Notes under the pieces: generated by a model | What the model was told of the DNA's origin: nothing | The model's input: only the letters and a program-made list of their open reading frames with translations | Databases searched by the model: none | Translations under genes and position numbers: made by a program | Shown here: piece by piece, positions 1 to 32,142 of the stretch | Numbering within the stretch: the stretch's first letter is position 1 | How the letters are laid out: each line of letters begins with the position of its first letter | Assembly: GCA_003990765.1 (NCBI GenBank) | Contig: RBNJ01000364.1 | Coordinates: 1-32,142, forward strand | Direction of reading: 5' to 3' | DNA from: Jimgerdemannia flammicorona | Lineage: Eukaryota | DNA length: 32,142 nucleotides

Positions 1-3000
1 CCTCAACCTCCCCCTGCCCAAGCACCACCCGATCACCCACTATCTGAACCCTCCTACCACTCTTCTGGGAGATACACTGTACCAAACCCCTGCAGTACCC
101 CCCACCCATACCCCAACCCCGCCACCAGCTATTTAAAATGTCCAACAGCAACCATTCCCACTGTGCCACCTTTTCACCAACCCCAACCTGATGCCCATCT
201 TCAAATACATGCACCCAATGCCCTGCCAACCCAACCCACATAGCTAAGGCCCAACCAAGAGTCAGCCATTCATCCCCGACCCCACCCACTAACCACTGGC
301 GAAGCTCTCCCCATCTCCCCCCTCCCTCCCCTCCCCCAGCCCCCAACCCTAACCTATCCATTATACATCTCCAAAACTCCCCCAGAACCTCGCACTTTCC
401 AAGCCAATGTTCAGGTGTTTGTACCACTCCTCCCTCCTGACCAACATTAAAACAATCCTCACACTCGAATACCCCACCATCCACCAAGTGACCAGACCGA
501 TAGTTCAGCATCACATTCCGCCATAAGATCCGCCACTACACCAACCAGAACTTGGGGGGTAGCCACTGCCTCACCCATTTGCTCCAAAGCCAGAGCCCAT
601 TCCAATCCCACTCTTCCCCGATTCCAACCCTCTGCCAAGCTTCAGGCCACAGGTCCCCACCTAGTCCTCACAGGCACTCCAGACCCTCGCCCAGCTGAAA
701 GTCCTCCACCAGAACACCACCCAATAAAAGCCTGTCCCATCTCCACATCTGTGGTCCCCAAACCTCCTCGGCCTCGTCACCTCGCCACCGAAGGCTGATT
801 TTCCTAGCACCATCCACTGCTCCCCACCAAAAGTCTGTAAACCGCATCCTCCGACTCCCTTCCATGGCCACCATTGCAAGCAGGTCACCGGAGCCACGTG
901 GGGAGTAACGAACCTCCCACAACCTCTGCATGAGTGGCACCCACTTCCGACCTCTAAGCTCACTCGCCCTCCTTAGCCACCAGGCCCTCAGACACAAGAG
1001 CTGCTTAGTAAAGTCCACTAAGCCCAGTCCACCTCTTTCCAAGGGCAGTGTGGGCACCTCCCAACCAACCTGGCTCTGCCGCCCTCCCCAAATCCACAAC
1101 CTCGCCATCTTCAACAACTCCTTAACCACCCATGGTGGGAAATCCAAATGATACCCAACATACCACAGCTTTGGCATCCAGTACACATTCAACACCATCA
1201 CCCTTCTAGCAAGGGACATATGCCGGCCTCCCCATCGCATCAAGACATCACCCCACTCCTGCAGTTTATGGTCCCACCATGCCTGGTGAAGAAGAGATCC
1301 GAACACCGAGAAGTAGATCCCCAAGTAGCACACTGGTTCACCAGCTGGAACCACCGTTCCAATAATATTGCCACCTACAATTCCAGCACCCAGCACCAGC
1401 ATCTCGCATTTGTGCTAGTTCAGCTTAGCTCCAGAACCCTGCTCATACCATTCCACCATCCTCTGCAACTCTCCAACATCCTCCAAGGAGCCCAGTCCAA
1501 CCACCATATCATCGGCAAAGGCTCCCACCTTCCAGTTCACCCCTAAAATGTCCAAACCTTCAATCTTATGCCGAATCCTGTCCAGTAGTGGCTCTAGGGA
1601 AAGGGCATACAATATGGGTGACAAGGGGTCCCCTTGTGGCACCCCACAGCCCAGGGGGAAGGTCACCCCCCGGTGGCCATTAATGACCAACGCTGCCTGA
1701 CTGTCCTCCAAGAGGCCGATCAATGAACCTTGGAACCCCGGGGGGATACCAATCCGCTTCAGCACTCCCTCCAGCCATATTCTCCGCACTCTATCATAAG
1801 CCTTCTCCTGGTCCAGAAATATCAATCTGCCATCCACTCCTGTAGCCCAGGCACCTTCAATCACTCCATGAACCCAGGCCATCCCATCTCGAATCAACCG
1901 ACCACTGACAAACCCACGTTGCTCCAAACCAAGCACCTGCTGTGCGATCCCTTGCAACTGCAACACCAAGATCTTCATCACCAGTTTGTGGTCCATGTCC
2001 AGAAGCATGATTGGCTGCCAGTTCTTCCAATCCTCCCTCCTGCTCTTGTTCTTATATAGCAATGAGACCAGCCCCAAGCGCTGTCCCCCAATCCAGGCAC
2101 GAGACCAAAGAACTTCATCACACATAGCCATCATTTCCTCTAGTACCTCATGCACCCCCGTCATCTTCTGCCAAAAATCCCAGGGGAGTCCATCCTCTCC
2201 CAGGGCTGTCCCTTTACTCGTAGAGGCCACTACCTTACAAATCTCCTCGCTGCTCACCAGGTCCCCCAATGCCACAAGTCCCATGGCTGGGTCTGGGTGC
2301 CAATCCCCCAGTTGCCTTTCAATGTCCAGAGCATCCAGTCCCCCTTCATCCTCACTCCAAAGGTTCCCCCACCGGGACCGCAACAGTCCCAAAATCGCTG
2401 AGGTCCCCACCACCAGCTCGCCATTCTCATCCAAAACTCCCTCCCACTGCTGCCTTGTTTGTCGCACTTGTAACAACTGTGACAAGAACCTGGTAGGTCT
2501 CTCCCCTTCCTCCAGCCCCTGCCATCACAAGCGGGCCACCATCCCCTTCAGCTGCTCCTCTTCCTCCCTCTATAGCACCCCTTTGAGCTCCTCCACCTCC
2601 TGCCGGATCCTCGCAATATGCCAATCTGCCTCAGTCCTATCCTCCAGTACACCCGCCCATCTCTCCATGAGCACTGCCAAATGCTGTGAGGCCCACATCA
2701 CCCACCGCCTTCACTGAGCACTCTTTCCTTTCCCCGCTTCCCTCCAATACCCCTGAGCCTTCACCTTCAACCTTCTCCAGCAGTCCCCAATTGCCAGTCC
2801 TTGATCCCACCACCTGTCGATAATGCCAACCACCTCTGTTTTCCAACCCTCTCATAATGCCCTATCCTCCAACAAGGAAGAATTTAGCCGCCAATGTCTG
2901 GGCCCATCCTCATTTCCCCCAAACCTCCCCCCTCCAAGCAACCCCCAGTGATCAGACCATGGACACCATACGACTCCCAGCACTGTCCAGACATCTGCTC

Positions 3001-3628
3001 TCCAATACTCTGCTGTTAGAACCCAGTCAATCCTAGAGCCCAGTCCTGCTGCCCAATGGGTATACATCCACTGATCAGTCCAAAAATGTCTCTCTGAGTC
3101 CACTAAAGAACACAACCTTTCCATCTCCAACCAGTCCGCCAACCCACCACTATCACCTCACATGCCTCTCCCTCCATCAGTTCTGTCCAACTCCTTATCC
3201 CATACCATTTTGAAGTCCCCCCCCAGACAGTCCAACCCAGCTTCTCTCAATAAACCAGCCTCTTTCAATCTGCGAATCCAATCCACCCTCTCCCCTCTCT
3301 CAGCTGGGCAGTAACAAGACCCAACCATCAGCGAGCCCCATCCAGGCCTCTTCCATACTCCCCACACCACCTGTGCCCCCCAATGTCCAATGTCCCCAAT
3401 GTCCCCCATCCCTTTCCAAACAAGAATACCCACTATCCCCCTCCAAACTGCTGCACCCCCCCATTCCTTAGTCCAATTCTGTAAATCCACATCTGCATCA
3501 TACCGAACATCCTGTAACAAGAAGAGGTCCGCATCCAGACCCTGAAGCCAACCAAAGATGTACTTCCTCCTAACCACCCCCCATAACCCATTAACGTTCA
3601 ATGAGAATATCATAGTTGTACTGTTCAT
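1..3628 (-). pseudogene. LINE ORF2 (APE endonuclease, reverse transcriptase, C-terminal CCHC), broken by stops and frameshifts
   Basis: APE motifs SLNVNG, LLQD, YCP, GGDF, SRIDW, SDH, WRLNSSLL. RT motifs GEDG, FLDQEKAYDRV, GVPQGDPLSPILY, FADD, AKLN, YLGI. The region 463-392 translates CEDC-x14-H-x4-C. Confidence 0.93.
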
Positions 3629-3659
3629 ATTGAGTAGATATTGTAGAAGAGACCTCAAC

Positions 3660-5553
3660 CTATAATTCCATGCTCATCTCATCTCTCGCCAAGTCCAAGA
3701 GTCGCTCAGCTTCCAATTCGCCCTCCACAATATCCCGAGCATCCAGTGCCCCCAAGATTTCCTGACACTCCACCCTGTCCACCTCCTCCATATCTGCCCT
3801 GTAATCCAAGCAGACTGCGCGCCACTTCTCTAGTCCCTTCCTTGAGTTCCACAAGACAAGTGCCCTGTCACTCGCAATCCTTCTAAGCTCCTCCTCTCGC
3901 TGATCATCAACCTGATACTCAACCGACTCCAGGAGGACAGCCAGGATCTCATTCCTCATCTTCCTCGGCACCTCTTCCCCATGTAGAATCTCCTCCCAAT
4001 GCCTCTCCTCCAACACCCTGAAGTCCTCACCCCCCAGCTCTTCAGCCGCTACCCCTTCCAGGGTCTTCCACATCCACTACTCCTCATCTACTGCCTCCAC
4101 CACCCCCTGAGCAATTTGTCCCCCATCCATCTCGGGGTCCACCAGTGCACTCCTCATCCGGCACATCCATCAGCTCCTCCTCACCTCCTGCCCCAATCGG
4201 AACACTATACTGTGGGTGCCCACCTTCACCCATTTCGGCATCCACCTCCAAGTTAACCTCCCTCCCCTCCCCAACTCCAATCTGAGCCCCGCCCTGGGCC
4301 ATCTCTCCCCCATCTGCCCAGGTGCTCTCCTGCAGCCCTGCAGCCCCCTCCCTGGAGCTTCCACCAGCCCTACCCCTGCCCAACTTCGCCAACAACTCCT
4401 TCTGAATCCTCCTCCCCTGCATCTTCTCCCAGGCCCTCTTCTCCATCCGAACCCTCTTCCCATCCACCTCCCCCACCACCATCCTGGCCTCAAACTCCTT
4501 CCAGGCTAATCTCCTCCTCGCAACTGCCCCTTCCAGGTCCTCCAGAGCCTCCAACAGGTCCTCCTCCTCCTCCGGAGTCCCCTTCACCCTAGTGATCTTA
4601 CACTCCACCTGTCCCCACCTCAGCGCTGCTGGCCAGTCCCTCAACTTCCCCATATTCTCCTTTCCAGCCAGTCTCACCCTGACATCGACGTCCCCAGTTC
4701 TAAGCTCCATGCCCTCTCAGACCTTGAACCCAACATCTACAATCTCGCCATACTCCTTGATCGCCTCTACAACCAACTCCCTGGTCCTTTCCTTTGACAC
4801 CGTAGGGAGGTCCAACACTATCAACTGCACCACCCGGGGGTCCCAGTACATACACTGGGCCATAGGGACCACAACCCCACCAACCATCACCCCCTTCTCC
4901 ATAGCTGCCAACAAGGTGGCTTCCTCCTCAAACCCCACCTCAACCCCTTCCTTTCCCCTCAAGAACTTCACTGACGCTGCTCCCTTAGCCTCCTGCACCA
5001 CCAGCCCCAAAATCATCCTCGCCATCACTGCCAAGCCCCGGAAGCACATTGTGACTGCGAATTCAGACCTCGACTTCTTGAGTAATGGGGCTGACACCAT
5101 GCCCGTCACCCCATCCGCCAGGTCCCTGGGCCTCGTGCCCACTCCAAGTCCGGAAATACCAACCACCGTCACATCTGGATTTTTTGCCAGATCCCCAGTC
5201 ACAGCCCCATCAACAGTCACATCTCCAGCCCCTACTCCAGCCCCTTCCCTACCACCAGAAGTACCCTGGGGTACACCTCCCTGACCCGCAGCAGCAGCCA
5301 TCGAAGCCTTCCCCAGGCTCAGCCAACTATCCAGCCCAGAAGCCACCTTCCCCATCCTGACCTTATCAGCAAAGGTCGACCTCTCCCCTCCTCTCTGCCT
5401 CAGACCTCCCCTCCCTCCGCCGCTGGGGCCTCGGCTAGCCATCGAGGCCCCTGGCATTCCCAAACCATCTCCCCTCCTCCCCACCTACTACCAGCCAAAG
5501 GCGCCGTCACCCCCCTGGCCAGTACGCTCACCAGATCGATCGTTGCCATCCAT
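3660..5553 (-). pseudogene. LINE ORF1 (Gly-rich N-terminus, RRM-like core, acidic C-terminal region)
   Basis: ATG at 5553 is in frame with the 5484-4717 and 4710-4084 fragments; one frameshift near 4100-4200. Homologous to 13914-14999 of copy 2 (FAVTMCFRGLAV/FVVTLYFQGLAV; RDWP; EERHW/EEHW). The RRM call rests on pattern and position, not a search. Confidence 0.8.
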
Positions 5554-5635: not shown

Positions 5636-8600
5636 ACTAGATATAGTATACTTATCTACTTATATTATACTTAGAACTCTATGGTTTAGAAAGTTTAACC
5701 TCAATATTAATTAGAGTAATAATGAAATTACTCTATAGAAACAAAGTCAAAAGCTTACTTTAAATCCAAAGCTAGTATAAGTAGAAAAATATCAGCTATA
5801 TAATTTTATAAAGAAGCTAAAAGAATAAAAGATTATTATCTCTACTGATATAGATAGTTCCAAAGAAAAAAGAAGCTATTCAAATTTCACAAATAATTCA
5901 GTCTCTTATAGAAGAATTCTCAGACATATTCCAAGAACCAATAAAATCTCCACCTAAAAGAAAGATCAGACATAAGATTAATATAATTTCAGGATTATTA
6001 CCTCCTTATAAACCTATTTACCCTATATTTCAGCCAGAGCTAGAAGACTTAAAAGAGGCTTTAAAGATACTTCTTAATAAAGAATATATTGAACTAAGTA
6101 TATTTCCCTATAGAGCACCCATTCTGTTTGTAAAAAAGAAAGAAAAATATTGAGAATATGTGTAAAATGCCATCTACTCAATAAGATCACTATACAAAAC
6201 TAATATCCTCTACTTAGTATAAAAGAACTACTTACTCAGCTTTACAAAGCTAAGGTTATGACCTTGGGTGACCTTAAAGAAAAGATTTTGATAGATAGGA
6301 ATAGATGAAAGAGATATAGAGAAAATAGCCTTTAAAACAAGATAGTGACATTATCAATTCAAAGTTATGCCCTTTGGATTAACTAATACTCTACTATCAT
6401 TTCAGACCTTCAGGAATGACATCTTTAAGCCTCTATTAGACAAGTGTATACTAGTTTATATAGATGACATTCTTATCTACAGTATAACTCAAAAGGAGTA
6501 TCTTCAATATCTAAGAGAAGTCTTCACTATACTGAGAAAAAATCAGTTATATCTGAAGCTTGAAAAATAACATTTCTTACAAGAAGAAGTAGAATACCTT
6601 GGATATATTGTTAGAAAAAGAATAGTCAAAACTTCACTCAGACTAATTAAGATTAGTCTCAACTTGAAAATCTTAAAGGATTATAAGGATTTCTAGGATT
6701 GGCCAACTTCTTCATATAATTTATAAAAGAATTCTCTATAGTAGCAGCCCCTTTAATAGCACAGACTCAAAAATATATGGATGTTAAAAAACATTAGACT
6801 TTTATCTAAATATAAGCCTTTAATTACCTAAAAAGACTTCTTACTAATATACTAGTACTGGGGATATCTGATCCAAAAGGCTTCTTTGAAGTTACTGCTG
6901 ATGTAATTGGAGTAGTTCTTACTTAAGAAAAACATTCAATTGCTTACTTTTCTCAAAAGTTAAAAAAAGCAGAAACAGATATACTATTTATAAAAAGGAA
7001 TTATTTATCATAGTCAGAAGCCTTAAAGAATAGAGATACTTTTTAATAAAAAAACATTTTTCTATCATAACAGATCATCAATCTCTTGTCTATATTTACT
7101 GCCAACCCATCTTGACTAAAAGACAAGTAAGATAGATAGAAGCCCTAGCAGATTATGACTTCATGGTAGAATACTACTCTGGAAAAACAAATGTCATAGC
7201 TGATACTCTTTTAAAAATAAAACAAATAGAGAAAATAGTAGTCACTATAATCATAACTAATGATCTCAAGAATCAGATCAGAGAAGCTATACTTACTAAG
7301 AAATTTGTAAATTCTTACAAAACCAATCAATAATTCAAGATTTAAAGAACTGATCAGAAAATTAAACCTCAAAGAAGAGTTACTATACTATGATGAAATA
7401 AGACTCTTAATTTCTAAAAATCAAAAACTGAGACTTCAAATTATACAAGAATAATATAATATACCTTTTGTAGAATATTATAGTTATAAAAAAACTCTTA
7501 CTAATATAACTCAGAACTTTTATTATCTAAAGATGACAGATAATATTAAGGACTTCTATTATTTCTATAACTTATATATATCAAAGAAATAAGACAAGTA
7601 ATCAAGAGCCTCTAGGACTTCTTCAATCTCTACTAATATCTACTAGAAATTGAGACTAGATTATCTTAAACTTTATAGTTAGACTATCTAAAACCAACCA
7701 AGGAAAGGATGAAATAGTAGTGTTCATAGATAGACTTAGCAAATAGATAAACTTTGAACTTACTACTACTAGTTACTATACTAGAAACAGTAAAGATTTT
7801 CTTATATATAGTTTTTAAACTATATGGACTACTCTCAAATAGTCTCAGATAGAGACCTCAAATTTATAAGTACTTTTTGGAAGATATTCTTTAGAATGAT
7901 AAATGCTAAGTTATCATTCTCTACTGTCTAATATCTATAAACTGATAGTCAGATGGAAAGAACTAACAGAACTCTCAAACAAATATTAAGAATATTCTAT
8001 AACTTCAAATAAGATGACTGAGGCCAATATCTCCTATTAGCAGAATATACTTATAATAATAACAAATAGTCATCTACTCAAATGATACCCTTCTTATGAA
8101 TACTGGTCAATATCTAAAAACTCTGACAACTATAGGAAAATCTATAGTACCTGCAGCAGAAGTCCTTATAGTAACTATTGGAAATATTATACAGTTAATA
8201 CAAAAAGAATTATAGAAGGCTCAGGAGTAATAAATCAAATATGCTAATTAATATAGAAAAGAAGTTCTCTTTAAAGTAGAAGTCTTAGTTCTCTTAAAAG
8301 TCTCTAATATAACTATAGCAAATCAGACTAGATATCTTGAATAAAGTCTATATTCAAAGTATATTAGATCTTACTTAGTTAAAGAAATAATATCTGATGT
8401 ATTATATCAATTAGAACTCTCTCAAGATATGAAAATACATTTTATATTCCATATCTTACTACTTAAATAGTACTCTAAATCAAATTCCCAATTAGAAAAT
8501 ACTTCTGCCTTTATTTGTAATAATTAAAGGACAACCAGAATATATTATAGAATAAATTTTAGACTGCCAAGTTATAAAAAGGAGACAAGAAACCTCTTTA

Positions 8601-13415: not shown

Positions 13416-13500
13416 ATCTTTCTCTAGTAACATTCAGGTTACACAATTTTTTGGCAGTACTCACAATACTGTTTTTGGAAAAAAAAAAGTGACCAGCAAT

Positions 13501-15165
13501 ATAGTGACTAATGTATATTCTAAGGTGCATACTAGGTAGGGTACCCTAGTGCATTTGACTGGCAGCATGTGGGGAGGAGCCCTGGCTTGGGGGGAAGCAT
13601 GAGAGGTCTGCTGGTGAGAGAACATATATAGAGAGGGAGTAGGGTTGGAGGGCAGGGGACAGAGAGGGCAAGTTTCATAGATATAGTGAGGAGGAGACAG
13701 CTGGCATCTGGGCTGGAGAGCTGGCTGAGAAAGGGCAAGGAGATGATGAAGGTAGCAGGGTATGAGAGAGCAGTCCTTGGTGGTAGGGGCAGTGTGGCTG
13801 GGGGTATAGTGACTGGAGTGAGTGTGATTGCTGATAGTAATAAGACTGCCAATCTGGAAAAACATCCAGATGTGACTGCTGATAGCAGGGCTGAGAGGAT
13901 AGGGCTTGGATAGATGGGGGACCTGGCAGATAGTGTGATGGGCCTGATGGTGGTACTATTACTCAAGAAGTTGATCTCCAAATTTGTAGTTACTTTGTAC
14001 TTTCAGGGCTTAGCAGTAATAGTGAAGATGATATTGAGACTAATTGCTAAGCAGATGGCTGAAGCAGTGTCCATGAAGTTCCTGAAGAGATTGGAAGGAG
14101 TAGAGGTAGGTTTTGAGAAGGCAGAGCCATTGGAGGAAGCACTGAAGGCTGGGCTGATAGTTGGGGAGATGTGTATTCCAATAGCACACTACTTAAAGTG
14201 GGACTCCCAGGTGATATAGCTGCTGGTGAAAGGGTGTCCATGGTGACCACTGTGAAGATGAGAAGGAGAGTCAAGAAAGTTATGACTGAGTATGGAGAGG
14301 TGGTTGATATTGGGTTCTGGGTCTAGGAGGGGACTATATTCTAAACTAGAGATATGGATATTAAGATTCAGTTAGCAGAGAAGGAAGCTACTGAGAAAGC
14401 TAGGGACTGGCCTTCAGTAATGGTTTTGGGGGCTTTCTTATGCAAGGTGATGAGGGTGAAGAGGAGTGAGGAGGAGGAAGAGGATTTGTTAGAGATACTG
14501 GAGAAGCTGAGTGGTATAGTGAAGTGGAGAGCAAAGGCTTGGAAGGCATATGTGAAGTTGACACATTTGGAGGTTGTAGATGGGAAGAGGACCCACATAG
14601 ATAAGGGGCTGTAGGAAAGGTCCCAAGGATGAACTGGTGGATGTCCAAGAGGAGGAGTGGGATGAGACTGCAAGTACAGGAGCTAATACCTTGATGCTGG
14701 ATGGAGGAAGGCCAGCGACTCCAGGTGGGAAGGAGGTGGGAAACCTACTGTGGATGTGCAAGATGATGAACAACATTGTGGTAGAGGAGTTGGGAGAGAT
14801 AGACCTGCAAGTGATGAGTGAAGAGCATTGGGCACAGATCCTACATAGTGATGGAGTGGTGGAGGCACTGAAGGCAGAGGTTCTTACAGTTTTCCTGAAG
14901 GAGGAAGGGTATGAGGTTGATAAGGAGAGAGAGGCTGAGCTGGTGGTTGCTGCTGGTGAGTGGGCTACCTTCTGTTGGGTAGAGCATTATGGGTTGTAGC
15001 TCTGGCAGAAGGCCTGCCTGAAGTATTATGAGGATTTCGAGAAGAAGGAGGATGGGAAGCTTGCTAAACTACTGGTTAGATTGAAGGCCAAGAGGATTGA
15101 AGAGGAGGCAGTGGCTACTGAACATGATCTGGACTTAGTTCAGGAGGTGATAAATATGGAGCAGT
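13501..15165 (+). pseudogene. LINE copy 2 ORF1
   Basis: Fragments 13686-13913, 13914-14219, 14354-14614 and 14637-14999 align with copy 1 ORF1. Boundaries are approximate. Confidence 0.8.
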
Positions 15166-15198
15166 AGAGGATACACTTACCATTTCACAATATTCCTT

Positions 15199-18100
15199 AT
15201 AAACAGTACAACTAACATTTTTTTTAAATGTGAATAGATTATGTAGTTCATTTCAACATTGGAACATTTTTGCTTAGCTAAAGAGATTGGAGGCCAATCT
15301 CTTTCTTTTACAGGATATCAGATGTAAGGATGATTTGGATAAACTGGAATGGACAAGTAAATAGAGAGGTGAGGCAGTTTAGAAGAGCAAGGTTGGGATT
15401 CTGGTTTGGAGAGACAGAGGAGAGGTATGAGATGTGAGAAGCTGGAGTGATAGACTGGTTTGGGGAGAGTGGATTCATACAGGCTGGGAGCCAGTTACAG
15501 TGGGATCCTGCTACTACTCTGCTGTGTAGAGTGAGTATATCAATTGGGTGAAGGGGTTCCAGAAGAGGGGAGCTCTTGTAGAGGCTGGAGCGGATGTGCT
15601 TGACAGGGACTTTAATATGGTCAGAGATGTGCTGATGGATAGAACTGACAGAGGGCAGGGGGCTGAGGGTAGAAGTGGAGGTCTGGAGATATGAGAGAAA
15701 GTGGAGAGGCTGAGTGCTCTAATAGATGATGGCAGGAGATTCTGGGGTGACAGGATGGTATACATACACTAGGTGAGTGGCCTGGGAACAAGGATTGACT
15801 GAATTTTGATGGCAGACTGCTGGGGCTTGGATGTTTGGAGGTCACTGGAGGCTAAATGGTGTCTATGATATGATTATTGGGGATTGCTGGGCCAGAGGAA
15901 TTTTGGGGGGAGTGGGGATGGATCTGAACATTGGTGCCTCAACTCCTCTTTGTTAGATAATAAGATGCTGTGGAACAAGTGGGCTGAGGACATTTAGCAG
16001 AGAGTGAAGAGGTAGATACAGAAAGGTGCCCCAGTTGGAGTTAGGTGAAGGAGGTTGAAGGAGGCTGCTAGGGTCTATTGGGAGAAGGCTGGCAAGGTGG
16101 TCAGTAGCCAGAGAAGGAAGAGGATGAAGTGGGCTTCTGTTAAATGGGTGAGGCTTCTGGAAGATTGGGCAGATCTGTTGGCCCTGGAGGGGGTGGAGGA
16201 TTGGAGATTACTACAGGTGAAAAAGGAGATTATTGAGTTGCAACAGGGGTTGTGGGAGGAAGAGGAAGCACAGGTGCAGAGTTTGGCAGTGTGGCTATGT
16301 TGGCAGGAGCTGGAGGAAGGGGAGAGGCCCTCCAAGTTTCACATGAGGGCTCTTTAGGTAAGAAGAGTACAGCAGAGGTGGGAAGGGGTTCTTGATTCTG
16401 AGGGACTATTGGTACATGATATACAAAATATTCTTAAATTGTTAAAGAAGAGGTGGAGTGGTTTATGGAGTAAGAAGGAGGGTGGGGCTGATGCTGCTAC
16501 CATTAATAATACTTTGAAGAATTGGCACCAATCACAGGTAAAAGGGCTGGGCAGTCTGGTGTTACTGGTACAGGAGGAGGAGATTTGTCAGGTTCTTACT
16601 GTAACTATACTGGGCACAGCATCAGGGGAGGATGGCCTGCTCTGGGATTTTTGAAGGAAGATGGTGGGTGTCCCCAATATACTGGGAGAGCTGATGGCAC
16701 TTTGTAACTTAGTACTATAGTCTGGGAGATGGGTGGGTGAGCAGGATCTGGGACTGGTGATACTGCTTTATAAGAACAAGGGCAGGAGAGAGGACTGGAA
16801 GAACTGAAGGCTGATCATGCTACTGGACATGGACAGAAAGTCAGTTACTAAGGTGACAGTAGCAAGGCTCAAGAAGGGGGTCCAATAGGTCCTGGGGAAG
16901 GAGCAGCAGGGCTTTGTGGAGGGCAAGCTCATTAGGGATAGTACAGCTTGAGTACATAGTGTTATTGAAGAGACACAAGACTGTAGACTGGATGAGTACC
17001 TGGTCTTTCTGGATCAGGAAAAAGTGTACAATCATGTTCAGCAAGTTTGGATGACAAAGGTACTGAATTGGATTGATATCTCTCAGCAGTTCTGAGTGGT
17101 AATAGTCAGTCTACTGAAGGGGAGTAGAGCAGTGCTCATGTGTAATGGGCATTAAGAGGTGACTTCTCTGGATAAGGGTGTTCCCCAGGGGGACCCACTG
17201 TCTCCCATCCTATATACTCTCTCCTTGGAGCCTTTGATGGATAGGATTCAGTAGAGAATAGTAGGGCTTTCAATATTTTGCATTGGGTGGAAAGTTAGTA
17301 TCTTTGCAAATAATATAGTGGTTGGCCTGGGTTCGATCACTGATATTGAGAAACTCAAGAAGACTATGGAGTAGTATGAGGCACACTCTAGGGCTAAACT
17401 CAATTAGCATAAGTGTGAAACAATAGTGTTGGGTAATGGCCTGGTGGGGGGGGATATCATCAGAACAATTATCCCTGCTAGAGAGGTGGTGAGGTACTTA
17501 GGTATCTATCTCTTGGCATATGGATCAGTCCTACTGAGACTCTGGTAGAAGCAGTGGATTTCAATCTGGGGAGAGGTCTTGCAGAGTTAGAGAGACTGTC
17601 ACTTGTCTCTGGCAGGGTGTGTTTCAATTTTGAATGTTTACTGGCTGCTGAAGTTGAAGTATTTGACTTATCATATGGACTTTTCAGCCTGGATAGTGAA
17701 GAGATAGATGAAATTGGCCAAGGGATAGATCTGGGCCAGGAGGTGGTATCAGATTAGCTGGGAAATCTTGTCTTTGCCAGTAGATAGAGGGGGACTTGGA
17801 CTGGTTGACTTTCCAAAGAGGTTGCACTGTCTGAGAACATAGTGGCTAAAGAGAGCTGTGAAGCTGTGAGGCAGTAGCTAGATTCCCCTGATGAAGAAGG
17901 TGTGAGAGATAAAGTCCTCACCAAGAGACTCTACAGGAGATCTACTGTTCTTGGTAGAGCTTCAGAATAATGAGTATATGTGGTTTAAGGGCTTCTGGTG
18001 GAGAGTAGTGGATGGGGTATACTGAATTGGGATTTATTACCAGAAAGATGAAGGAGAGCTATCTTGGGACCCAATAATGTGAAGATGGGATCAAGTGTAG

Positions 18101-19005: not shown

Positions 19006-21640
19006 TCAAATGTGTTTTACTTCTACTGAGTAGTAAGATCTTATGTAGTTGTAGTATATCTTAGTCTTGAGTACAACTCTATCCAGAGTCTTGAGTTGGT
19101 AGGTGTGGTTTATAAACTCCTGATATATGAGATAGGATTAGTTCAAGTTTTATACTCCAGTTTCCTTCTATGATAGTATAGTATACTAAGACTTATTATC
19201 TAATAAGTAGAGGTTCAAGTTAGCTTTGCAATCATAATACTTCTGTTGTCATTCTTATACCTTAGAAATAAATTCTCAATCTTATTAACATACTTCATAT
19301 AACTGAGTGATCTCTTCAGTAACTTATTTGCCAAATCTAGCTTGATTGGTTTAGTGAAGTCTTATACTTCTCAGCTATATATAAAATAGAAAGGGGTCTG
19401 TTGGGTAGTGGTCACCTTTGAAGTATAGATACTGAATAGAATTACTGAAAGATAAATATCTCAGTTTAATTAATTTTTAGTTTTACTGAGATCTCACTTG
19501 ATGGTCTGGTTTATTCATTTGATAAGTCTATTCAGTTATAGATAATAAGCTGTTTTCAGTTACAGTTTGATCATAAAGTTGTCTACAAAGGTCTTCATAG
19601 TTTTATTAATAAATTCTCAGTCTTAGTCTCTAATAATTTTCCTGGGAATACTATGGTGGCTGGAAATTTTATCATACAGAATTCTATTGCTTATTTGAGT
19701 ATCAGTACTCTCAATAGCAAAGACTTTAGGTCATTTTGTCAGATAATCTTCTATAGTGAGGATATAGAATCTTTATTAGCTAGTTACTAGTAGAGAACTA
19801 ATAATATCTATTTCTAGTCTTTGAAAGGCTCTAGATAGTGATATAATTAGCATTAGTAATACTTTATCAGTTGGTTTCTATCAGTATCTTTGGCAGATAT
19901 TATATTGTTAAATATGTATCTAAATTTGTTTCCTCATTTTTGGCTATTAGTATCTCTTCTTGATTCTTGCAATAGTGACTTTAATTCCTCAGTATATATT
20001 CTGACCATGGTTTGTTATGAGTATCTTTAGTATTTTATCTTCTTGTAAAACTTAGATATATCAATCGCCATCTACTCTCTAAAGTTCACCATCATTTTTT
20101 TGAAATTTCTTAAAATTTCTTTATATAAACAGCTTGTTAGCTGGTTGAATTTCCTTTTGGAAGCTCCTATAGTATAGGCTTTAAGTGAGAGTGAGGTGCA
20201 ATTCTTGGTTTATTTGAGTAAGTAAGAAGCAGTCTTCTGTTATAGAGGCTCCTACCCTTCTCATTAAGTTTATAGAATCCTTAACAGAGTATCAATATTG
20301 GAATTCTTAATATATTTCTTATAGATAATAGTAAACTAATATTCTTGCAGAGATATGATTTATCTGGTAAAGATTTCTGAGAGCTCTGATTTGTTGAACA
20401 ACTATTATAGAGCTTAGTGATCAGTAATAAGAATAAATCTCTTTCTCAAGAGATGGTGTCTAATGTGATCTATAGCCTATACTATAATAAGATATTCTAG
20501 CTTAGTGGCTCCCTAGTTTGCTTATATCTCATTAATGACCTTGCTAGTATACTCAATGACATATTTCTTCTTCTGGTCATTTTGTTGATCTAAGTCCAAG
20601 AGCAGGGACATCTGTTACCAAGATAAATAGTTTGTCAAAATATAGTTATACTAAAATAGAAGCTTTGGTAAGGGTCTTCTTGAGTAGGTCAAATGACTTC
20701 TATTATTCTTCCCTTCAGTAGAATAGTTGGTCTTTCTTAGAGATGTTATATAGTAGAGCTATCTTAGCTGAAAATCCTAGAATAAATTACTGATAGTAAG
20801 ATACTAATATGAGAAAAGATAGGATATTCTTTCCAGAGATAAGAGTTGGATAATTCTTAACTTTCTCTATCTTGTATAGGTTAGTATAAGTTCCTTGGGC
20901 TGAAATTATATATATATCTCAGATATTTGACTTAGTGTTTTCCAAAGAAGTATTTCTTAATATTAAGTCTAAGTTCTGAGTTTCAGATAGTATCAAATAC
21001 TTTATAGAGATCTTGTAGATATTGTTCAAATGTCTTAGAGTAGATAATCATATCATCTATGTATATCAGCACATTTATTCCAATAAGGTCTCAGTAGATA
21101 TAGTTTATTATTTTCTTGAATAAGGCTAGTACATTATCTAATCCAAATAGTTTCCAGAGATATTTATATTATTCTCATCTGATAATAAAGGCTGTCTTGC
21201 AGATATTATTCTTAGTAATGAGTATTACTTGAAATTCTTGAAACTGATCAGTGGTATTCATATACTTGCCTTTTCTAAGAGTATTGAGAAGGTCATCAAT
21301 TCTTAGCAGTGGGTAGATATCTTCTATAGTGACTTTATTAAGTTTTCTAAAGTTTACAACTATTTTCCATTCTTCTTTCTTTGGTACTATGATTGCTTGT
21401 GAAGTCCAGGGGCTTGATGAGGGTCTAATGACTCTATTTCATAATATTTCATCTATGTATTATTGTTCAAACTCAATTAAGTAGTATAGTATTCAGTAGG
21501 AGTATTGTTGGATTGGTTTGATATCTTTTATATATATGGTATATTCTATATATTGATATGGTAGAAAGTTATTATATATAGTAATAATATATCTTTATAT
21601 TCTTCGATCAACTTCTGTAACTATTATTACTGATTCTTAG
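19006..21640 (-). pseudogene. pol: Gypsy B RT, RNase H and integrase
   Basis: IRPSSSPWTS, DIYPLLRIDDLL, VLIYIDDMIIYS, ITDH*AL, a degenerate HHCC (RY**PKM...YNICQR), FQRLEIDII, and a GPY/F-type tail (HTYQLKTLD) ending in TGA at 19008-19006. Confidence 0.92.
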
Positions 21641-22080
21641 TCAGAGTTGTCTCAATGTCAACAGCTTTGATTGCCAAGTCTTCCTCTCTAATATCATTAG
21701 TCTCACTAGAGAGAACTTGCTCTTTTCCAAAAATTCAAAAACTTCTTCCTTATAGGTATCTATCATGGTTTGAAATATCTCAATATTATATCACTAGAAA
21801 TTATTATCACTTTGAAGCCCAGGTTTTAGATAGAAATATAGATTGGTAACATCAGATTATAGATTTATTCTTCAGCTAGGATGATTTTCAGAGTTCTATT
21901 GATAGATCAAATATCAGATTGTTGGTATCTACAAATAGGTATATATCAAGGCTTCTTTGTTGATATGTTGAAGAGAATATCTTCTCTTACTCAGATAGAG
22001 TAGCAGATATGTAGTTTTATTTATCATAACTGAGCTACTATTGCTAAGTAGACTTCAATGAGTGATTTTTGAGAAGTTCT

Positions 22081-22476
22081 ATTGGTACTTCCAAAACCAC
22101 CTTATTCTCTCTTAGTACTGTCTAGTTGATTCACCTCTTGAATAGTAAGCTATAATATCTTAATAAATAGAATTTGACAGATGACTTCAAAGTAGTTAAA
22201 GACTTAGTAGTTTCTACTATTATTGTGAATAATAACCTTTGGAGGACCTCAATAATCCTGATCAATAATCCCTCCTTCCTTTGACTGCTAGAGATAATTT
22301 TGATATTAGTTGTTTATAATATTCAAGTAGTATAGTGTGTAATTTGAAGATCAAAATTCCTAGTGATCCTAGGATAGAGTATTACCTAATAGAGAAGACA
22401 GAGGTCATATTTTACTGATCCTTCTGTTTGTACAAGAGGAGGTTATGCCCAAGATGATAGCAGTTTGACTTCAATA
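22081..22476 (-). pseudogene. dut: dUTPase domain of element B (between protease spacer and RT)
   Basis: VKLLSSWA*PP..TEGSVKYDL (motif I, AGYDL), GIIDQDY*G (motif III, G-x-ID-x-DYRG), ICQILF (motif IV), KRE*GGFGST (motif V). Confidence 0.88.
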
Positions 22477-23559
22477 ACTAGCTAGATCTTGAGGAATGTT
22501 ATCTCAGTAGTTATTATTATAAGTGAGAACTCCATCCTTTCTGGCTTAAAGAATAGTTAATGTACTCTAATCTTTAGATTTCTTGTACAGTTGAATCTAG
22601 TTTTTTTAAGTAGATCTAAGGCTTTTATAAAAGTGAAAGTAAGGTTGACTCCTTGTTTATCTTTAGTGTGGCCAGTAATACTAATAAATGATAGTAAGAA
22701 TTTCTAATGGTAGATCCTAGATAGAGGTCTTGTTCTTGACTTTACAGTTTCCTTTATGGTTGAAATCTTTGTATTTCCAAAAGGCCCAGTAAATTTGAGG
22801 TTCTATAAGATGGGATCCTTCCTCTTAACTTAGCTCTTATAGATAACTTCACTGAGGTAGATACTTCAATATTCATATCAGTAACAGGTAAAGGTCTTTC
22901 CACAATCACAGTATCCTTGCTTGATGAATTCCTCATTCTGCTGTTTGATTTCCTTAATTATTAGATATCTTTTTCAATATTTGTTATATATAGGTAGAGT
23001 GATCTAGAGGGTTCAGATAATGGTATAGATACTGTTGTTATTATCTTTAATTGTGAGGGTCTCCAAAGGTTAGTAAGAGAGGATCTTCTATTCTTTATTA
23101 TAGATCTTCTTGAAAAATTTTGAAATAGATGGTAGTATTCATCTGAGGACCAAAACTCATTTTAACTTTAATTGCTAGCATTGGAATCTTTTTGAGATCA
23201 AGGATTTGGTAGTTGCTACAATTATTCCTTGGTGAGTAGAAATAGTTATAGTATTTATACATATTTAAGTGAAAGGCTCACATAATTCAATTTTCTTTCA
23301 GAGGTAGAGATGGTGATATAGATGGTCTTACAAATTTGAGTACTACTTCTTTACTAATAGTCAATCAATACTTGCTTCTAGACTTTCAGTATTAATAACT
23401 TCAATAAAAAGGTTTTTTTGACTACTGTCAAGATCTTAGAGATATCAAAATCACTTTCTAGTTCTTGCAGAAAATTTACTTCACTTTTATCCTCTATAAT
23501 AGTGAGTATATCTCTATATTCTTATCATTCTGTCTTGGAGGCCTAACTTGCTCTCTTTG

Positions 23560-23930
23560 ATCCTTTTGACTCAATTAGTATCTTGTGCTTTTGTCTATAA
23601 AAGGTGAAGACCAGGAGTTATTTTTTGATATCTATATTAGCTCCAACTTAGTATAATCAGTTAGTTTCCAAAATCAGATCAGAGGAGGTTACCAGAATTA
23701 TTACAGCTTAAGGTATATTGAGGCAAACCTTTTTACCTTAAATAGATATATCTCTAACTAGTCCAAGAGAGGTAGATACTAATTCATCTGCTATGATAAC
23801 TCTTACTTTGGTTCCTTTATCAATTGCTTACTCAATCATTTCTAGTATTTACTAAATAATAATGCAAACTACTGCTTCAGTATCAATAAGGATTCTGATA
23901 TTTTCACTATGTATCTTTCTATTAACTAAT
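23560..23930 (-). pseudogene. Aspartic protease of element B
   Basis: ILIDTEAVVCII (from ILIDTGAAxCII, as in element D) and a downstream DLILETN* (DLILGTNW-like). Confidence 0.85.
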
Positions 23931-25661: not shown

Positions 25662-26560
25662 TATGAAGAGTCAGTCTATCAGCCAGACCCCTCTGCTACA
25701 GAAGAAGTAGGAGGATTACAGCTCAATATAGAGGATATAATCAATGTTATGGCCTACCAAATCTAAGAACTTCATGTATAACTAGAACAGCAGAAAACAA
25801 GAACTGTAAGTATATCATATTCTACCATAGCCACTAGTCAGTTTCAAGTTACTCAAGCCAGATATCTTCAACAGCCATTGAGGAGGGCTATCTACAGATA
25901 CATAGATCTTCCAGTTGGATGAATACTTCGAGCTCACAAGAATGGAAGAAGACATGAAAGTCCAATTTGCTACCACACTTCTCTGAGGAAATGCAGCCAT
26001 CTGGTGGCATAATTATATCATGGTTACCTCTGTACACTCATATGCATGAATCAGAGACTAGGATGCCTTCAAGAGAACCCTTTACAAGCAGTTCAAGTCT
26101 GCTAATACTATCAAACTAGCCAGAGACAAGCTAGTGAACATCAAGTAACTCAAGTCTACAATGCACAATTCTTGTCAATTCTACTCGAGCTACCAGTGAT
26201 ATCTGAGGACAAAAAGATTAACTGCTATATCCAAGATCTGAAGGAAATACATGAGTCAAGATCAAGCTAGAAGAGCCCAAAAACCTTGATGAAGCCATGA
26301 GAATTACTAATTGGTTTGATGTTATCACCTTTGGTAACTACTTTGAACCAAAATCCTGCAAGATGAATCACTTTGAGAACCACCACAAGAACCAACCAAG
26401 GACAGTTGGCCTGGCACCAATAGACCTATATACCATAAACAAAAAGAACACCAAGCTTACCACTAGGACCACCTAAAGAAATCTGGAGCCTGTTTCTTCT
26501 GTCATCAAATAGAACATATTGCAACCAAATGTCCTAAGAAGACTAGTGAACCCTCAAGAT
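25662..26560 (+). pseudogene. gag: Element C gag
   Basis: KPDIFN..T*IFQLDEYF..KVQFATTLL*GNAAIWW; knuckle CFFCHQIEHIATKC at 26491-26532. The start is approximate. Confidence 0.88.
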
Positions 26561-26616
26561 CAGTCACTATGTTGTCCAAAGATACATCTGTCAACCCCAC
26601 TACCAGTCAACTCAAG

Positions 26617-27028
26617 CTTAAGATCAAGAAGCTTCATCTAAAGGCCCAGACCCCTCAATATCAAATAGAAGAAGTCATTGGTCTTAACCTACACTCAGTC
26701 AAACAAGTCACTATTTTAGCTAAGGGCTGCACTCTGATGCCTACTGAAAATTACAGTTCAATGTCCTGAAAGACATTATGCCAGAATTGTACTGTAATCA
26801 GGACTCAGTATCAAATATCATTTAGATATAGGTACTGGTGTCATTGACCCAAACTTTTTAGAATAAGTTTAAGTTCCACTTATTAACTAGAAGGATCAAG
26901 ACTACACAGTTAAGGAAGGAGACTGAGTTGCACAAATGATCCTAGAAAAAGCCAGTCAACTTAAGATTACAGAAGTCCAAGAACTCCCTGAAACCAAATA
27001 AGATCAAAAAGATTTTAGCAGCACTGAT
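26617..27028 (+). pseudogene. dut: dUTPase domain of element C (between nucleocapsid and protease)
   Basis: LKIKKLH..AQTP..IGLNLHS (I), HYARIVL*SGLS (II, PRSGL), GVIDPNF (III), GD*VAQMIL (IV), TK*DQKDFSST (V, from TxRGxxGFGST). Confidence 0.92.
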
Positions 27029-27059
27029 CAAGCAGCCAGTCTTAGTGAAAATCAAGCTT

Positions 27060-27506
27060 AAGCTATACTCATTTCCAAAGGCTTAGTCAAAGAAAAAGAA
27101 GTTCAAGTACTCATAGACAGCAGAGCTACAAAGAACTTCATTAATCAGAATCTCATTGAAAGCCTCAGGATTCTTATCAAGTCTGTACCCAAGAACAATA
27201 GTATAATCACTACAGATGGTACTCTGTATCCCATTGAGTCAATTGCTACCAAACTACCCATCAAGATCTAGAAATATTGAGAATGAGTAGACTTTGAGGT
27301 TGCTCCACTAGGAGATTATAATCTGATCTTAAGAAAACCCTAGCTTATGAAATATAACCCAGACATCAATTGGTATAAGAATGAAGTCACCCTACTTCAA
27401 GATAGAGCTAATATTACTATCAAGACAGATACGACCATGAGCAAGATCCAGATTATAATACTTTTAGCTATATGTACAAGAGAGTACTCAAGAAGACAAT
27501 ATATAT
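27060..27506 (+). pseudogene. Aspartic protease of element C
   Basis: VLIDSRATKNFI (from LIDSGAT) ... YNLILRKP*LMKYNPDINW. Confidence 0.9.
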
Positions 27507-28877: not shown

Positions 28878-31800
28878 ATATGACTTTTCAGCTCACAAGA
28901 ACCCACAGTCAAACTGAATACATTTGATACAATACCAATTTCTGCCACTATAGGAGAACTAGTCATCACTAGTATTTGGACAGGAAGAGAAGTAATTATC
29001 TCAAGACTTGCCAACTACCCAGCATCAGAAGGATCCCAACCAGAAGCAGGAGGCAGTACAGTCCAAAATCCCCAACCAGATCAACCAGATCAACCAGACA
29101 ATACAGACAGCCTTACTAGAGATTTCGGAGAACTTGTACAAGAACTAGAAGACCTTATCACACGGGCCCAATACTTTACAGCCAGATACCCCACACCAGT
29201 CCCACCAATCTCACCAATAGAACCCCTACCACAACCCCTTGCAGAACTGGAAGTAGCTCCTACAAGAATACCTAGGCCTATTCCACTCCATTTAAGAACC
29301 AGAACACCATCTTCAAGATATCCAAGCACCCCCATCTCTAGTGACAGTTCAGAAAGTGAATCAGAATCTGAATCCGAACTTGAACCAGAATCAGAAGAAA
29401 GTGATGATGAAATGGCCACCTCATTGCCAACCTTTGCAGGATATCTGGAGGAAGATCCCCAAGAATTCCTTGATGGAATCGAAGGAATTGCAGCCTTGAG
29501 AAATCTCTCAGATGAAAGAAAAATTGCCATCTACAAAGCCCAGCTCAGAGAACCAGCCAGAGGAATTTTCCATCAAACAGTGAACAACTGAGATTCAGAA
29601 CTAGTAAGACAGATACAAGCAGCAATGTCGGATGAGCTAGAATACGAAGCCATGGTCTACTGGCTCATTGAAAAATATGCAGGAAATGAAACCCGCCACA
29701 AGGCCCAGAAATCTATCATGGGAATGAAGATAAATCTTGGAGAATTACCCAGAGCCTTCTTCACAAGAATCCAGAAGAGAATGCATTCTGCCGGGTTCAA
29801 TGCCACTAACCAAGACATTATGGTCCAATGACCTTCATGAATGGAATTCCTCCAAATATTGCCCAGCATGTCTGCACCCTAGGCATCAGAAGGTCTGAAG
29901 AATAAGTAGATGCAGCCCAAGGATTCTTTGATATCAGGCAAGGAACTACCTGGAGTGACCATGACAAGAAGGAAGATAAAGATGATATCCTGATCAAAGC
30001 CCTACAAGGACTCCTTCAAGGACAAGAAAGGACCAAAGAAAGAAGGTCATCCAAGGAAGGAAAGAAGGACAGAAGTAAAATTCAAGACCTCAGCTCCAAG
30101 TTAGACCAATTGGTCAGACAGATTGAAAAACTCACCACATGTGAAAATCAGGATTACCAAAACAACAGAGGGTACCCACCACAGAGGAGCCAAGGTTATC
30201 CACCAAGAGATAACAGAAATTACCAGCAAGAAGAAAGAAGGTACCCTGTCCGAGACAGAGCCCAAGTCCAATGCTTCTACTGTGGACAATTCAGATACTA
30301 TGCCACTGAATGTAACAACAAAAGAAGTGACCAAAGGGACTCAGAACCACCAAACCAAAGGAATGACACTCAGTACAAAAAGACTGAAGCCCATCCTGTT
30401 GAAGATTTCAAAGAAGCAAGTGACAGTAAAGACTACAGTGACCTAGACTTGTACCCCACTAGGGTTACAACTTGGAAAACAGTCTATCCAGCAGAGAAAA
30501 GAAAAAGACCCATAGGAAGACCATCCAGGAACATCAGCAGAAGAATTATCCAAGAAGAGGATGAAGAACATGAGGAAGTACAAGTATAAACACCTCCCCA
30601 AACCCCCTCACCTTTTGTCCTCGAGACAAATGAGTTGCTACCAGAAGATGAAGAAATGGAACAAGAAGAACGGGAACCTGCTGCTCCAAAGCCTAAGAAG
30701 AAGTGCACTCCAAAGATCATGCCTAGAGACATTTACAATGAAGCCTGGCAGAAGATTCAAGAAGCCAAGATAGAAATCCCTCTCCTGCAGTTCTTGCAAC
30801 TGACACCAGCTGGAGTTCGAAACAAATTGCTGAGAACCACCAGGTCTAGCACTGGCCGAGTTCCAATCCCACAGCAAGAACCAGCTTCCATTCCTGTTCA
30901 AGCAGCTGAAAGACATGTCAGCACCTACCTACATGGAGATATTGGAGGACAAAAAGCGAAAATCCTCATAGACACAGGAGCAGCCATCTGTATTATTGCC
31001 AAACAATTCTTGGACACCCTCCAATGGCCCATTGATGGACCATCCAACCTCAGCATCATAGTAGTAGATGGAGCCCGAACTCAACCCCTTGGAGAAGTAT
31101 GAAATATCACTATCTCCCTTGGACACATTCAATTCTCCATCCCCAAAGCTGTTGTCACTGAAGCTGTCACCTATGACATGATTCTTGGCACCAACTGGAT
31201 GAAGGAAATGAATGCAGTTGTTGACATTGGCCAACAAGTACTCAAGTTTGACTACTGAGGCAAGAAGTACAGAGTTAAGGTGACCAGAAATGAGCAATTG
31301 AAGAAAAAGAAGAAGGTCACAATTCAGGAAGAGTATGCCAGCAGTGAAGAATCTACCACAGAAGAAGAAGAAGAATCCGAAGATGGAAACAATCCCAGAC
31401 TCAATCCCTGAATTAACCTGGTGGATGACAGACCAGAAGACAATGTGTGGACTAAGAACACCATCCCCATCACTATTGGAGCCATTGCAGGAGAAGCCAA
31501 AGGATGCCCCACATGCCTCAAGAGACACAAGTGTCCCAAGCACTCCTCCAAGATCATGGGAACAAGGAAATCGCCTGGCACAGCCTGCCCAGAGTGCAGA
31601 AGAAAGAAGAAGAAATGCAGATATGTTCCAGAAACACCTGCAACTAAAGCTGTAGAAGTACAAGCAATTTGGGGTCAAGAATCATCTGAGGAAGAAGAAA
31701 CTTCTGATCAAGAAGTTCCTGAACAAGGAGCACCTGATGAAGAAGAAGTCCCCAAACTCATTCCCTGGGATGACCCTCGCTGGACACCACCTGAAGATAA

Positions 31801-32098
31801 TGACCCCTGTAATACAGAGGAAGGACCCAGTATCATCACCATTATCCCCAAGAAAGAAACCCACTAAGAGAAAGCTTTCTGGTTGGAAGATGTCCACATC
31901 AAATGGTCTTCCACTCTCCATGAGACTACTGCTATCAGTGTCATCTGTTGGACCAACAAGAAAGATAGAGACCCCAGAGACCAGAACCCCTAACTACTCT
32001 TACACAGTCTACTATCTTTCAAGAAGTCACCACAAGGTTACAAAGTTAATTTAAAGGACAAGGCTTCTTTACCTGAACAGGAATATATCTCTTGTCTA

Positions 32099-32100
<2 letters not shown>
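28878..32100 (+). pseudogene. gag-pol: Element D gag-pro polyprotein (few stops, two apparent frameshifts)
   Basis: LPTFAG..EDPQEFL; TFMNGIP; knuckle CFYCGQFRYYATEC (30272-30313); protease ILIDTGAAICII and YDMILGTNW. One frame runs from ~29832 to ~31810, interrupted only by TGA/TAA stops consistent with CGA/CAA origins. Confidence 0.9.

Positions 32101-32142
<42 letters not shown>
32101..32142 (-). mobile_element. Poly(A) tail of a probable third LINE or other retroposed insertion on the minus strand
   Basis: 42 T interrupt element D coding sequence at the window edge; the body is not visible. Confidence 0.6.

Follow-up and report, generated by a model that had tools for sequence, protein, structure and literature searches.

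A putative CHCC zinc finger near the dUTPase of Gypsy retrotransposons in Jimgerdemannia flammicorona

Gypsy retrotransposons of Jimgerdemannia flammicorona encode, in a polyprotein that also contains a trimeric-type dUTPase domain, a small Cys/His domain that is real and apparently still without a name, a putative accessory zinc finger. The best explanation of its sequence is a single-zinc finger of the CHCC type, roughly 35 residues long and shorter than the 41-residue His/Cys domain described in an earlier note on this DNA. That note had proposed an undescribed system; what we find is one small domain within a known kind of element.

A decayed contig of nested retroelements

The window analysed here is a whole 32-kb contig (RBNJ01000364.1, 32,142 nucleotides), and genome searches covered the fragmented 231-Mb assembly. 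The window is composed of nested LINEs and Gypsy elements, and both of its finger-bearing copies, one of family B and one of family D, are dead. CpG is almost absent and C-to-T/G-to-A decay is heavy, with G-to-A and C-to-T changes making up 64% of the differences between the window D copy and preserved copies, pointing to methylation- or RIP-type decay. CpG observed/expected is near 0 and GC as low as 25% between positions 6000 and 28000. Two related LINEs (endonuclease, RT) lie in opposite orientation at 668-5484 (-) and about 13500-18000 (+) and are 62-77% alike in patches.

The family-B element starts near 29.4 kb on the plus strand and is truncated where the contig stops, shortly past the finger. 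It encodes gag at 29412..30313 with a CCHC knuckle at 30272-30313 (zf-CCHC matches proteins P0015 and P0017), an aspartic protease (PR) at approximately 30929..31255 with a DTG motif at 30962-30979, and a Zn2Cys6-like double Cys motif at 31505..31618 (Pfam Zn_clus E 0.017, below the cut-off), which is retained in P0015, an outside relative of B, and absent from family D (P0005). The 44-codon block of the finger (finger A) follows at 31823..31953, disrupted by the loss of one base and by two stop codons. Long T or A runs occur at or near contig ends, at 32100-32142 of the window and also in L155, L158 and L206; such runs are probably an assembly artefact, and the window B element is cut at one of them.

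On the minus strand, the family-D element encodes a decayed protease at approximately 23600..23930 (motif at 23893-23873, intact in P0005), a decayed finger A at 23197..23328 that forms a single frame and scores 27.4 bits, a second Cys/His motif (finger B; C-x-[HC]-G-xn-C-x2-C) at 22851..22916, a conserved helical domain at 22530..22716 (lower limit approximate) in which only the first helix is F-box-like, and a dUTPase recognised by domain match at 22027..22424. RT, RNase H and integrase, assigned by domain matches and an RT tree, occupy 19374..21450. In the B element, finger B would fall past the contig end. B copies and the window's D copy follow the Ty3/Gypsy order gag, PR, RT, RNase H, integrase. 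Several copies carry extra ORFs, next to gag in family E and downstream of integrase in B (L049:5436-6317 (-), L152:967-1824 (+), L050:7423-7758 (+)).

The reading frame of the finger

The frame from 31831 does give the 41 residues that the earlier note quoted for 31831..31953, and that reading is chimeric, joining two frames. For comparison, family-B copies were chosen by DNA similarity to the window; the family is abundant, 40 of 1147 candidate matches having been scored at 93-95% identity, and 20 loci including the window were examined. All 19 other copies carry one extra base at window positions 31882..31887 (+), the site of the window copy's missing base and the origin of the chimeric reading. 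The YHHHYP half at 31831..31881 (+) is off-frame and, by comparison with other B and D copies, outside the protein. Pattern matching places the Cys motif in frame with the upstream protease ORF in 16 of the 19 (in the remaining three, one pattern was missed owing to substitutions), and YHH appears in the Cys frame of none. In a natural B copy, 665 stop-free codons span the region and reach the dUTPase, and in P0015 the complete gag-PR-cassette-dUTPase frame is open. The junction with the protease frame, expected near 31810, actually lies near 31885.

The gapless alignment of this reading to family D at 23318-23197 also fails, since that interval holds 122 bases and the alignment therefore required an invented frameshift; the D block at 23328-23197 (-) is one frame without any frameshift. 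The D frame used for that alignment contains a stop in 28/28 matched copies of the well-preserved D subfamily, for which 29 loci were inspected; among decayed D copies the figure is 19 of 21 (25 examined). YHH is found in a single D copy, that of the window. It is almost certainly wrong that a His-rich 41-residue domain starting YHHxYP is a real product: its frame is open over a short stretch in most B copies, with YHH in 38 of 44, but the YHH half is joined to the Cys half in the window copy alone, is stopped throughout the preserved D copies and is absent from every database match. We rejected the His-rich front half as protein on the 19/19 B-copy indel and the 28/28 D stops, and with its loss the five or six His/Cys ligands originally proposed reduce to the set C, H, C, C.

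Motif, ligands and predicted fold

Read in the protease frame, the finger has the spacing C-x-H-x10-C-x2-C, with four predicted zinc ligands, and the family motif F-x2-G-x-C-x-H-G-x-R-F-[YH]-S-P-x-D-x-C-x2-C; a longer-looped subtype is also present. Cys, His, Phe, Ser, Pro, Cys and Cys are invariant in 17/17 aligned fingers, and the second His of the earlier motif is replaced by Tyr in 12 of them. We infer that the four invariant Cys and His residues would bind one zinc ion. The likely ligands in the window B copy are Cys 31891, His 31897, Cys 31930 and Cys 31939; the window D copy retains one of the four, the others reading Tyr. In charge, the core of the finger is close to neutral (K+R 4-7, D+E 3-5 in 31 residues).

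An AF2 model built from 16 sequences (mean pLDDT 80, >90 in the core) places a helix, a knuckle with C-x-H, a loop and a helix beginning at CxxC, and predicts that the finger folds independently. We take this helix-knuckle-helix layout to be reminiscent of treble-clef fingers. A model of the whole cassette (mean pLDDT 49) contains two confident helix-knuckle-helix islands, finger A and the second motif, separated by disordered linkers, with the finger sitting in acidic, poorly ordered linker sequence. The shared layout suggests that the second motif may be a paralogue of finger A; it scores <=3.1 bits on the finger profile.

The helical domain ahead of the dUTPase is shared by B, D and P0020 (P0001 residues about 369-425), and has no Pfam match at E<=10, no fold support and low AF2 confidence. 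About 110 residues after the dUTPase are also conserved in B, D and P0020 (L016 / P0001 residues about 590-665; P0015 C-terminus), and by eye, with no Pfam match, they look like a second, degenerate dUTPase-type fold.

Comparison with known zinc-finger families

The finger has no match passing threshold in Pfam, NCBIfam, PHROG, PDB sequences or fold searches, and none convincing in Atlas, in keeping with the earlier expectation that no annotated domain would account for it; fold searches returned nothing, and for so small a domain they are uninformative. As also claimed at the outset, the finger differs in both spacing and position from the CCHC module of gag and the HHCC module of integrase. 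The gag knuckle (PF00098) is spaced C-x2-C-x4-H-x4-C, and zf-CCHC found no match on the finger in Pfam scans, though it matched the gag knuckle of the same proteins. The integrase module is spaced H-x3-7-H-x23-32-C-x2-C and stands at the integrase N-terminus, whereas the finger's two leading His are off-frame and the finger lies far upstream of the integrase.

The best Pfam resemblance is to zf-ChsH2 (PF12172), a rubredoxin-like zinc ribbon, found for 3-4 members per alignment with best E values of 0.0019-0.0053. Both share a similar F..P..CxxC ending, but the finger differs in its C-x-H first knuckle and in the helix that follows CxxC in the model. The B member scores 12.2 bits on zf-ChsH2 against a cut-off of 23.2, and the profile has 0 matches in this genome at E<=1. 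Compared with the rubredoxin-like two-knuckle fold, the finger model is helix-knuckle-helix, fold searches being empty at this small size.

Together with the CxxC and the helix that come after it, the G..F[YH]SP loop resembles what we presume to be an A20-type arrangement. A20-type fingers (PF01754) use four Cys ligands, whereas the second ligand of the CHCC finger is His in 17/17. The zf-A20 profile (cut-off 21.6 bits) gave two sub-cut-off genome matches, neither of them a finger copy at E<=1, and no match in Pfam scans of finger members.

Homology and selection between families B and D

Natural copies of B and D, aligned without gaps in the protease frame, share 21 of 44 residues, and 16 of these 21 are encoded by different codons. 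Over codons 18-44, B/D identity at codon positions 1/2/3 is 0.63/0.71/0.38, and over codons 1-17 it is flat at 0.35/0.37/0.41 (532 pairs in each case). Because third positions have diverged while first and second positions are conserved, the rear 27 codons appear to be under purifying selection, and to this extent the earlier proposal of a selected Cys/His domain holds for its rear half. By these alignments, the corrected B/D homology is far beyond chance.

This homology extends past finger A through the second Cys/His motif and the helical domain to the dUTPase (33% over 491 columns, dUTPase included; E 1e-65). The remark that the surrounding linker shows little similarity is correct for the upstream linker and not for the region from finger through dUTPase, which aligns. 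Nor can B and D be called divergent Gypsy families, as they are sister lineages in the RT tree with support 99/97; since they are sisters, their finger-to-dUTPase similarity reflects common descent.

Spread of the finger and co-occurrence with dUTPase

The cassette profile, run against 1.84 billion representative proteins, returned 8 matches, 6 of them real; the two dropped as spurious were an ankyrin protein and a repeat protein, both matching outside the finger. Finger profiles gave 11 and 15 matches against the protein database. The union of cassette and finger searches comprises 18 proteins with the finger, which may not all be independent, four database matches being close to families of this genome. 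A dUTPase domain (PF00692) is present in 10 of the 18, including 9/9 of those longer than 500 aa, and the remaining 8 are fragments of 101-248 aa.

Within this genome the finger occurs in families B, D, E and F, and all four carry dUTPase (PF00692 E 1.8e-27 on P0001 and 4.4e-29 on P0005). The high-copy families E and F have the longer-looped subtype, whose scores on the finger profile are 14.2 and 10.7 bits, where none of 420 shuffled proteins exceeds 1.1. Conservation in further families, which the earlier note had left to be checked, is thus found in E, F and the database proteins, and co-occurrence with dUTPase holds in B, D, E, F and all nine of the longer proteins, elements without dUTPase having been surveyed non-systematically. 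Family C of the window has dUTPase but no finger, the best score being 1.6 bits in 12 loci. Its element at 26491-27300 (+) has a gag knuckle, dUTPase and protease and lacks the CHCC finger, making it a natural negative control; the family has at least 40 copies at 85-87%.

Extra fingers in tandem are found in four lineages, and by this comparison tandem duplication of the putative finger is recurrent. The outside relatives P0037, P0040 and P0046 have a second finger 38-47 residues past the first.

Domain order and lineage

We observed four domain orders: PR-finger-(extra domains)-dUTPase in B, D and outside relatives; PR-finger-dUTPase-RT in F and others; gag-finger-dUTPase-PR in P0028 and P0030; and gag-dUTPase-finger-PR in family E. 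Nearness to the dUTPase, as read from these arrangements, is the constant across the four. The accessory cassette proposed between PR and RT does comprise the finger, further domains, dUTPase and an optional Zn-cluster-like motif, but its position there is not fixed, the finger also sitting between gag and dUTPase and between dUTPase and PR. The finger lies about 110-340 residues ahead of dUTPase motif 3, except in family E, where it follows the enzyme, and other domains intervene between the two in B, D and two more lineages.

The deepest split of the protease tree (15 rows, midpoint root, long branches flagged) separates E, C and P0028/P0030 from B, D, F and the rest with support 100/100. 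An integrase chromodomain was observed in family E. Each finger subtype occurs on both sides of the split, which suggests exchange of the finger between lineages, the alternative being ancestral presence with loss. The base of the dUTPase tree is unresolved and the tree gives no sign that the finger and the enzyme have travelled together.

In B and two outside relatives (L147:3-2906; P0015; P0020), the frame that holds gag, PR, finger and dUTPase ends before RT. The frame change would thus lie downstream of the dUTPase and not between gag and PR, and we infer that the finger and the dUTPase would both be expressed at the level of Gag.

Possible functions

By analogy, we tentatively favour, at somewhat short of even confidence, a zinc-finger adaptor by which the particle would retain the dUTPase while reverse transcription proceeds. 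The finger would remain with the dUTPase after protease processing and hold the trimeric enzyme inside the virus-like particle, close to reverse transcription, where local dUTP would be lowered, as with the zinc-knuckle nucleocapsid (NC) of betaretroviral NC-dUTPase. Because the finger core is not basic, its partner would more likely be a protein than RNA, with Gag, RT and the dUTPase itself as candidates. Invariant ligands, purifying selection, the confident predicted fold, co-occurrence with dUTPase in the genome families and the longer database proteins, occurrence in both protease clades and the four domain orders count for an adaptor. Counting against it are family C, whose dUTPase without a finger indicates that the enzyme does not need one, the near-neutral core, unlike that of NC, the wide and domain-filled spacing between finger and dUTPase, and the dUTPase tree without joint movement.

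Family C speaks for another reading, possible though unlikely, in which the finger is a hitch-hiker or structural spacer, a real finger captured with or near dUTPase and kept for polyprotein folding or processing with no functional link to the enzyme. Plain descent in the RT sisters B and D and the acidic, poorly ordered linkers fit such a spacer, as does the accumulation of retroelement extras near PR described in parts of PMC6431247 and PMC5408684. The finger nevertheless stays near the dUTPase through reorderings that include gag-finger-dUTPase-PR and gag-dUTPase-finger-PR, and conservation of the non-ligand Phe, Ser and Pro in 17/17 suggests a binding surface.

A conserved, non-basic aromatic surface could also belong to a host-interaction module, such as a ubiquitin-binding or anti-silencing finger, which we consider quite unlikely. 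The A20-type likeness of the loop, the F-box-like helix downstream in B and D and the tandem extra fingers in four lineages would suit this role, and giant Gypsy elements have ubiquitin-related extras according to passages of PMC6431247. Set against it are the zf-A20 searches, which matched no finger copy in the genome at E<=1 or in Pfam scans, and the lack of any F-box match; such a module would also leave the tie to dUTPase unexplained.

Improbable, too, is a second nucleocapsid-like knuckle through which the dUTPase would be anchored directly on RNA or cDNA. Conserved aromatics, and basic residues (one or two) that precede the knuckle, are in its favour, together with the direct analogy to NC-dUTPase (as partly described in PMC4531489) and the extra knuckle after dUTPase in Juno elements (from portions of PMC5408684), but the charge is neutral, the spacing is CHCC rather than CCHC, and the elements retain their own gag CCHC.

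A bolder and doubtful version of the adaptor would make the finger a dedicated mobile retroelement-specific dUTPase partner that independently re-creates NC-dUTPase targeting or recruits a host factor of uracil/ubiquitin metabolism. It would have been exchanged at least twice between deep Gypsy lineages, because each of the two subtypes lies on both sides of the protease split.

Relation to known dUTPase-bearing elements

dUTPase is called rare in retrotransposons in the relevant part of PMC5408684, and the reason that they carry it is described as unclear in a section of PMC2864245. dUTPases at varying positions in fungal Gypsy elements are already known, as excerpts of PMC2864245, PMC6431247, PMC2774666 and bioRxiv 2023.09.13.557621 indicate. 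PosPlaTy3-3, -4 and -5 of Postia placenta and the Phanerochaete and Tuber elements resemble those studied here in having a dUTPase whose position varies and may lie between PR and RT; the main-text description in PMC2864245 mentions CCHC and HHCC fingers only, and no finger of the CHCC type next to the enzyme. Juno LTR retrotransposons of bdelloid rotifers likewise have an extra zinc motif adjoining dUTPase between PR and RT, but, compared by description in part of PMC5408684, their zinc knuckle follows the dUTPase, whereas the C-x-H-x10-C-x2-C finger usually precedes it.

The NC-dUTPase of MMTV and M-PMV offers a comparable zinc module fused to dUTPase, and its coupling to nucleic-acid binding was proposed to deliver the enzyme to the places where RT synthesis occurs; as described in PMC4531489, the module is the basic gag CCHC NC, fused directly by a gag-pro frameshift. 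The finger, in contrast, is CHCC, near neutral and separate from the gag NC, gag keeping its own knuckle, and it is not a member of the NC-dUTPase family. We found no description of a CHCC finger beside dUTPase in the literature searched, repeat databases, subscription papers and the supplements of PMC2864245 being outside its scope.

The finger concerns only a small set of elements, neither of its window copies is alive, and its function is a prediction. The case also illustrates that a frameshift private to a single decayed repeat copy can be enough to create half of a supposedly 'conserved motif'. The finger adds an unnamed entry to retroelement domain lists, and a small domain that follows the dUTPase through domain shuffling may offer a handle on how these elements place or control the enzyme.
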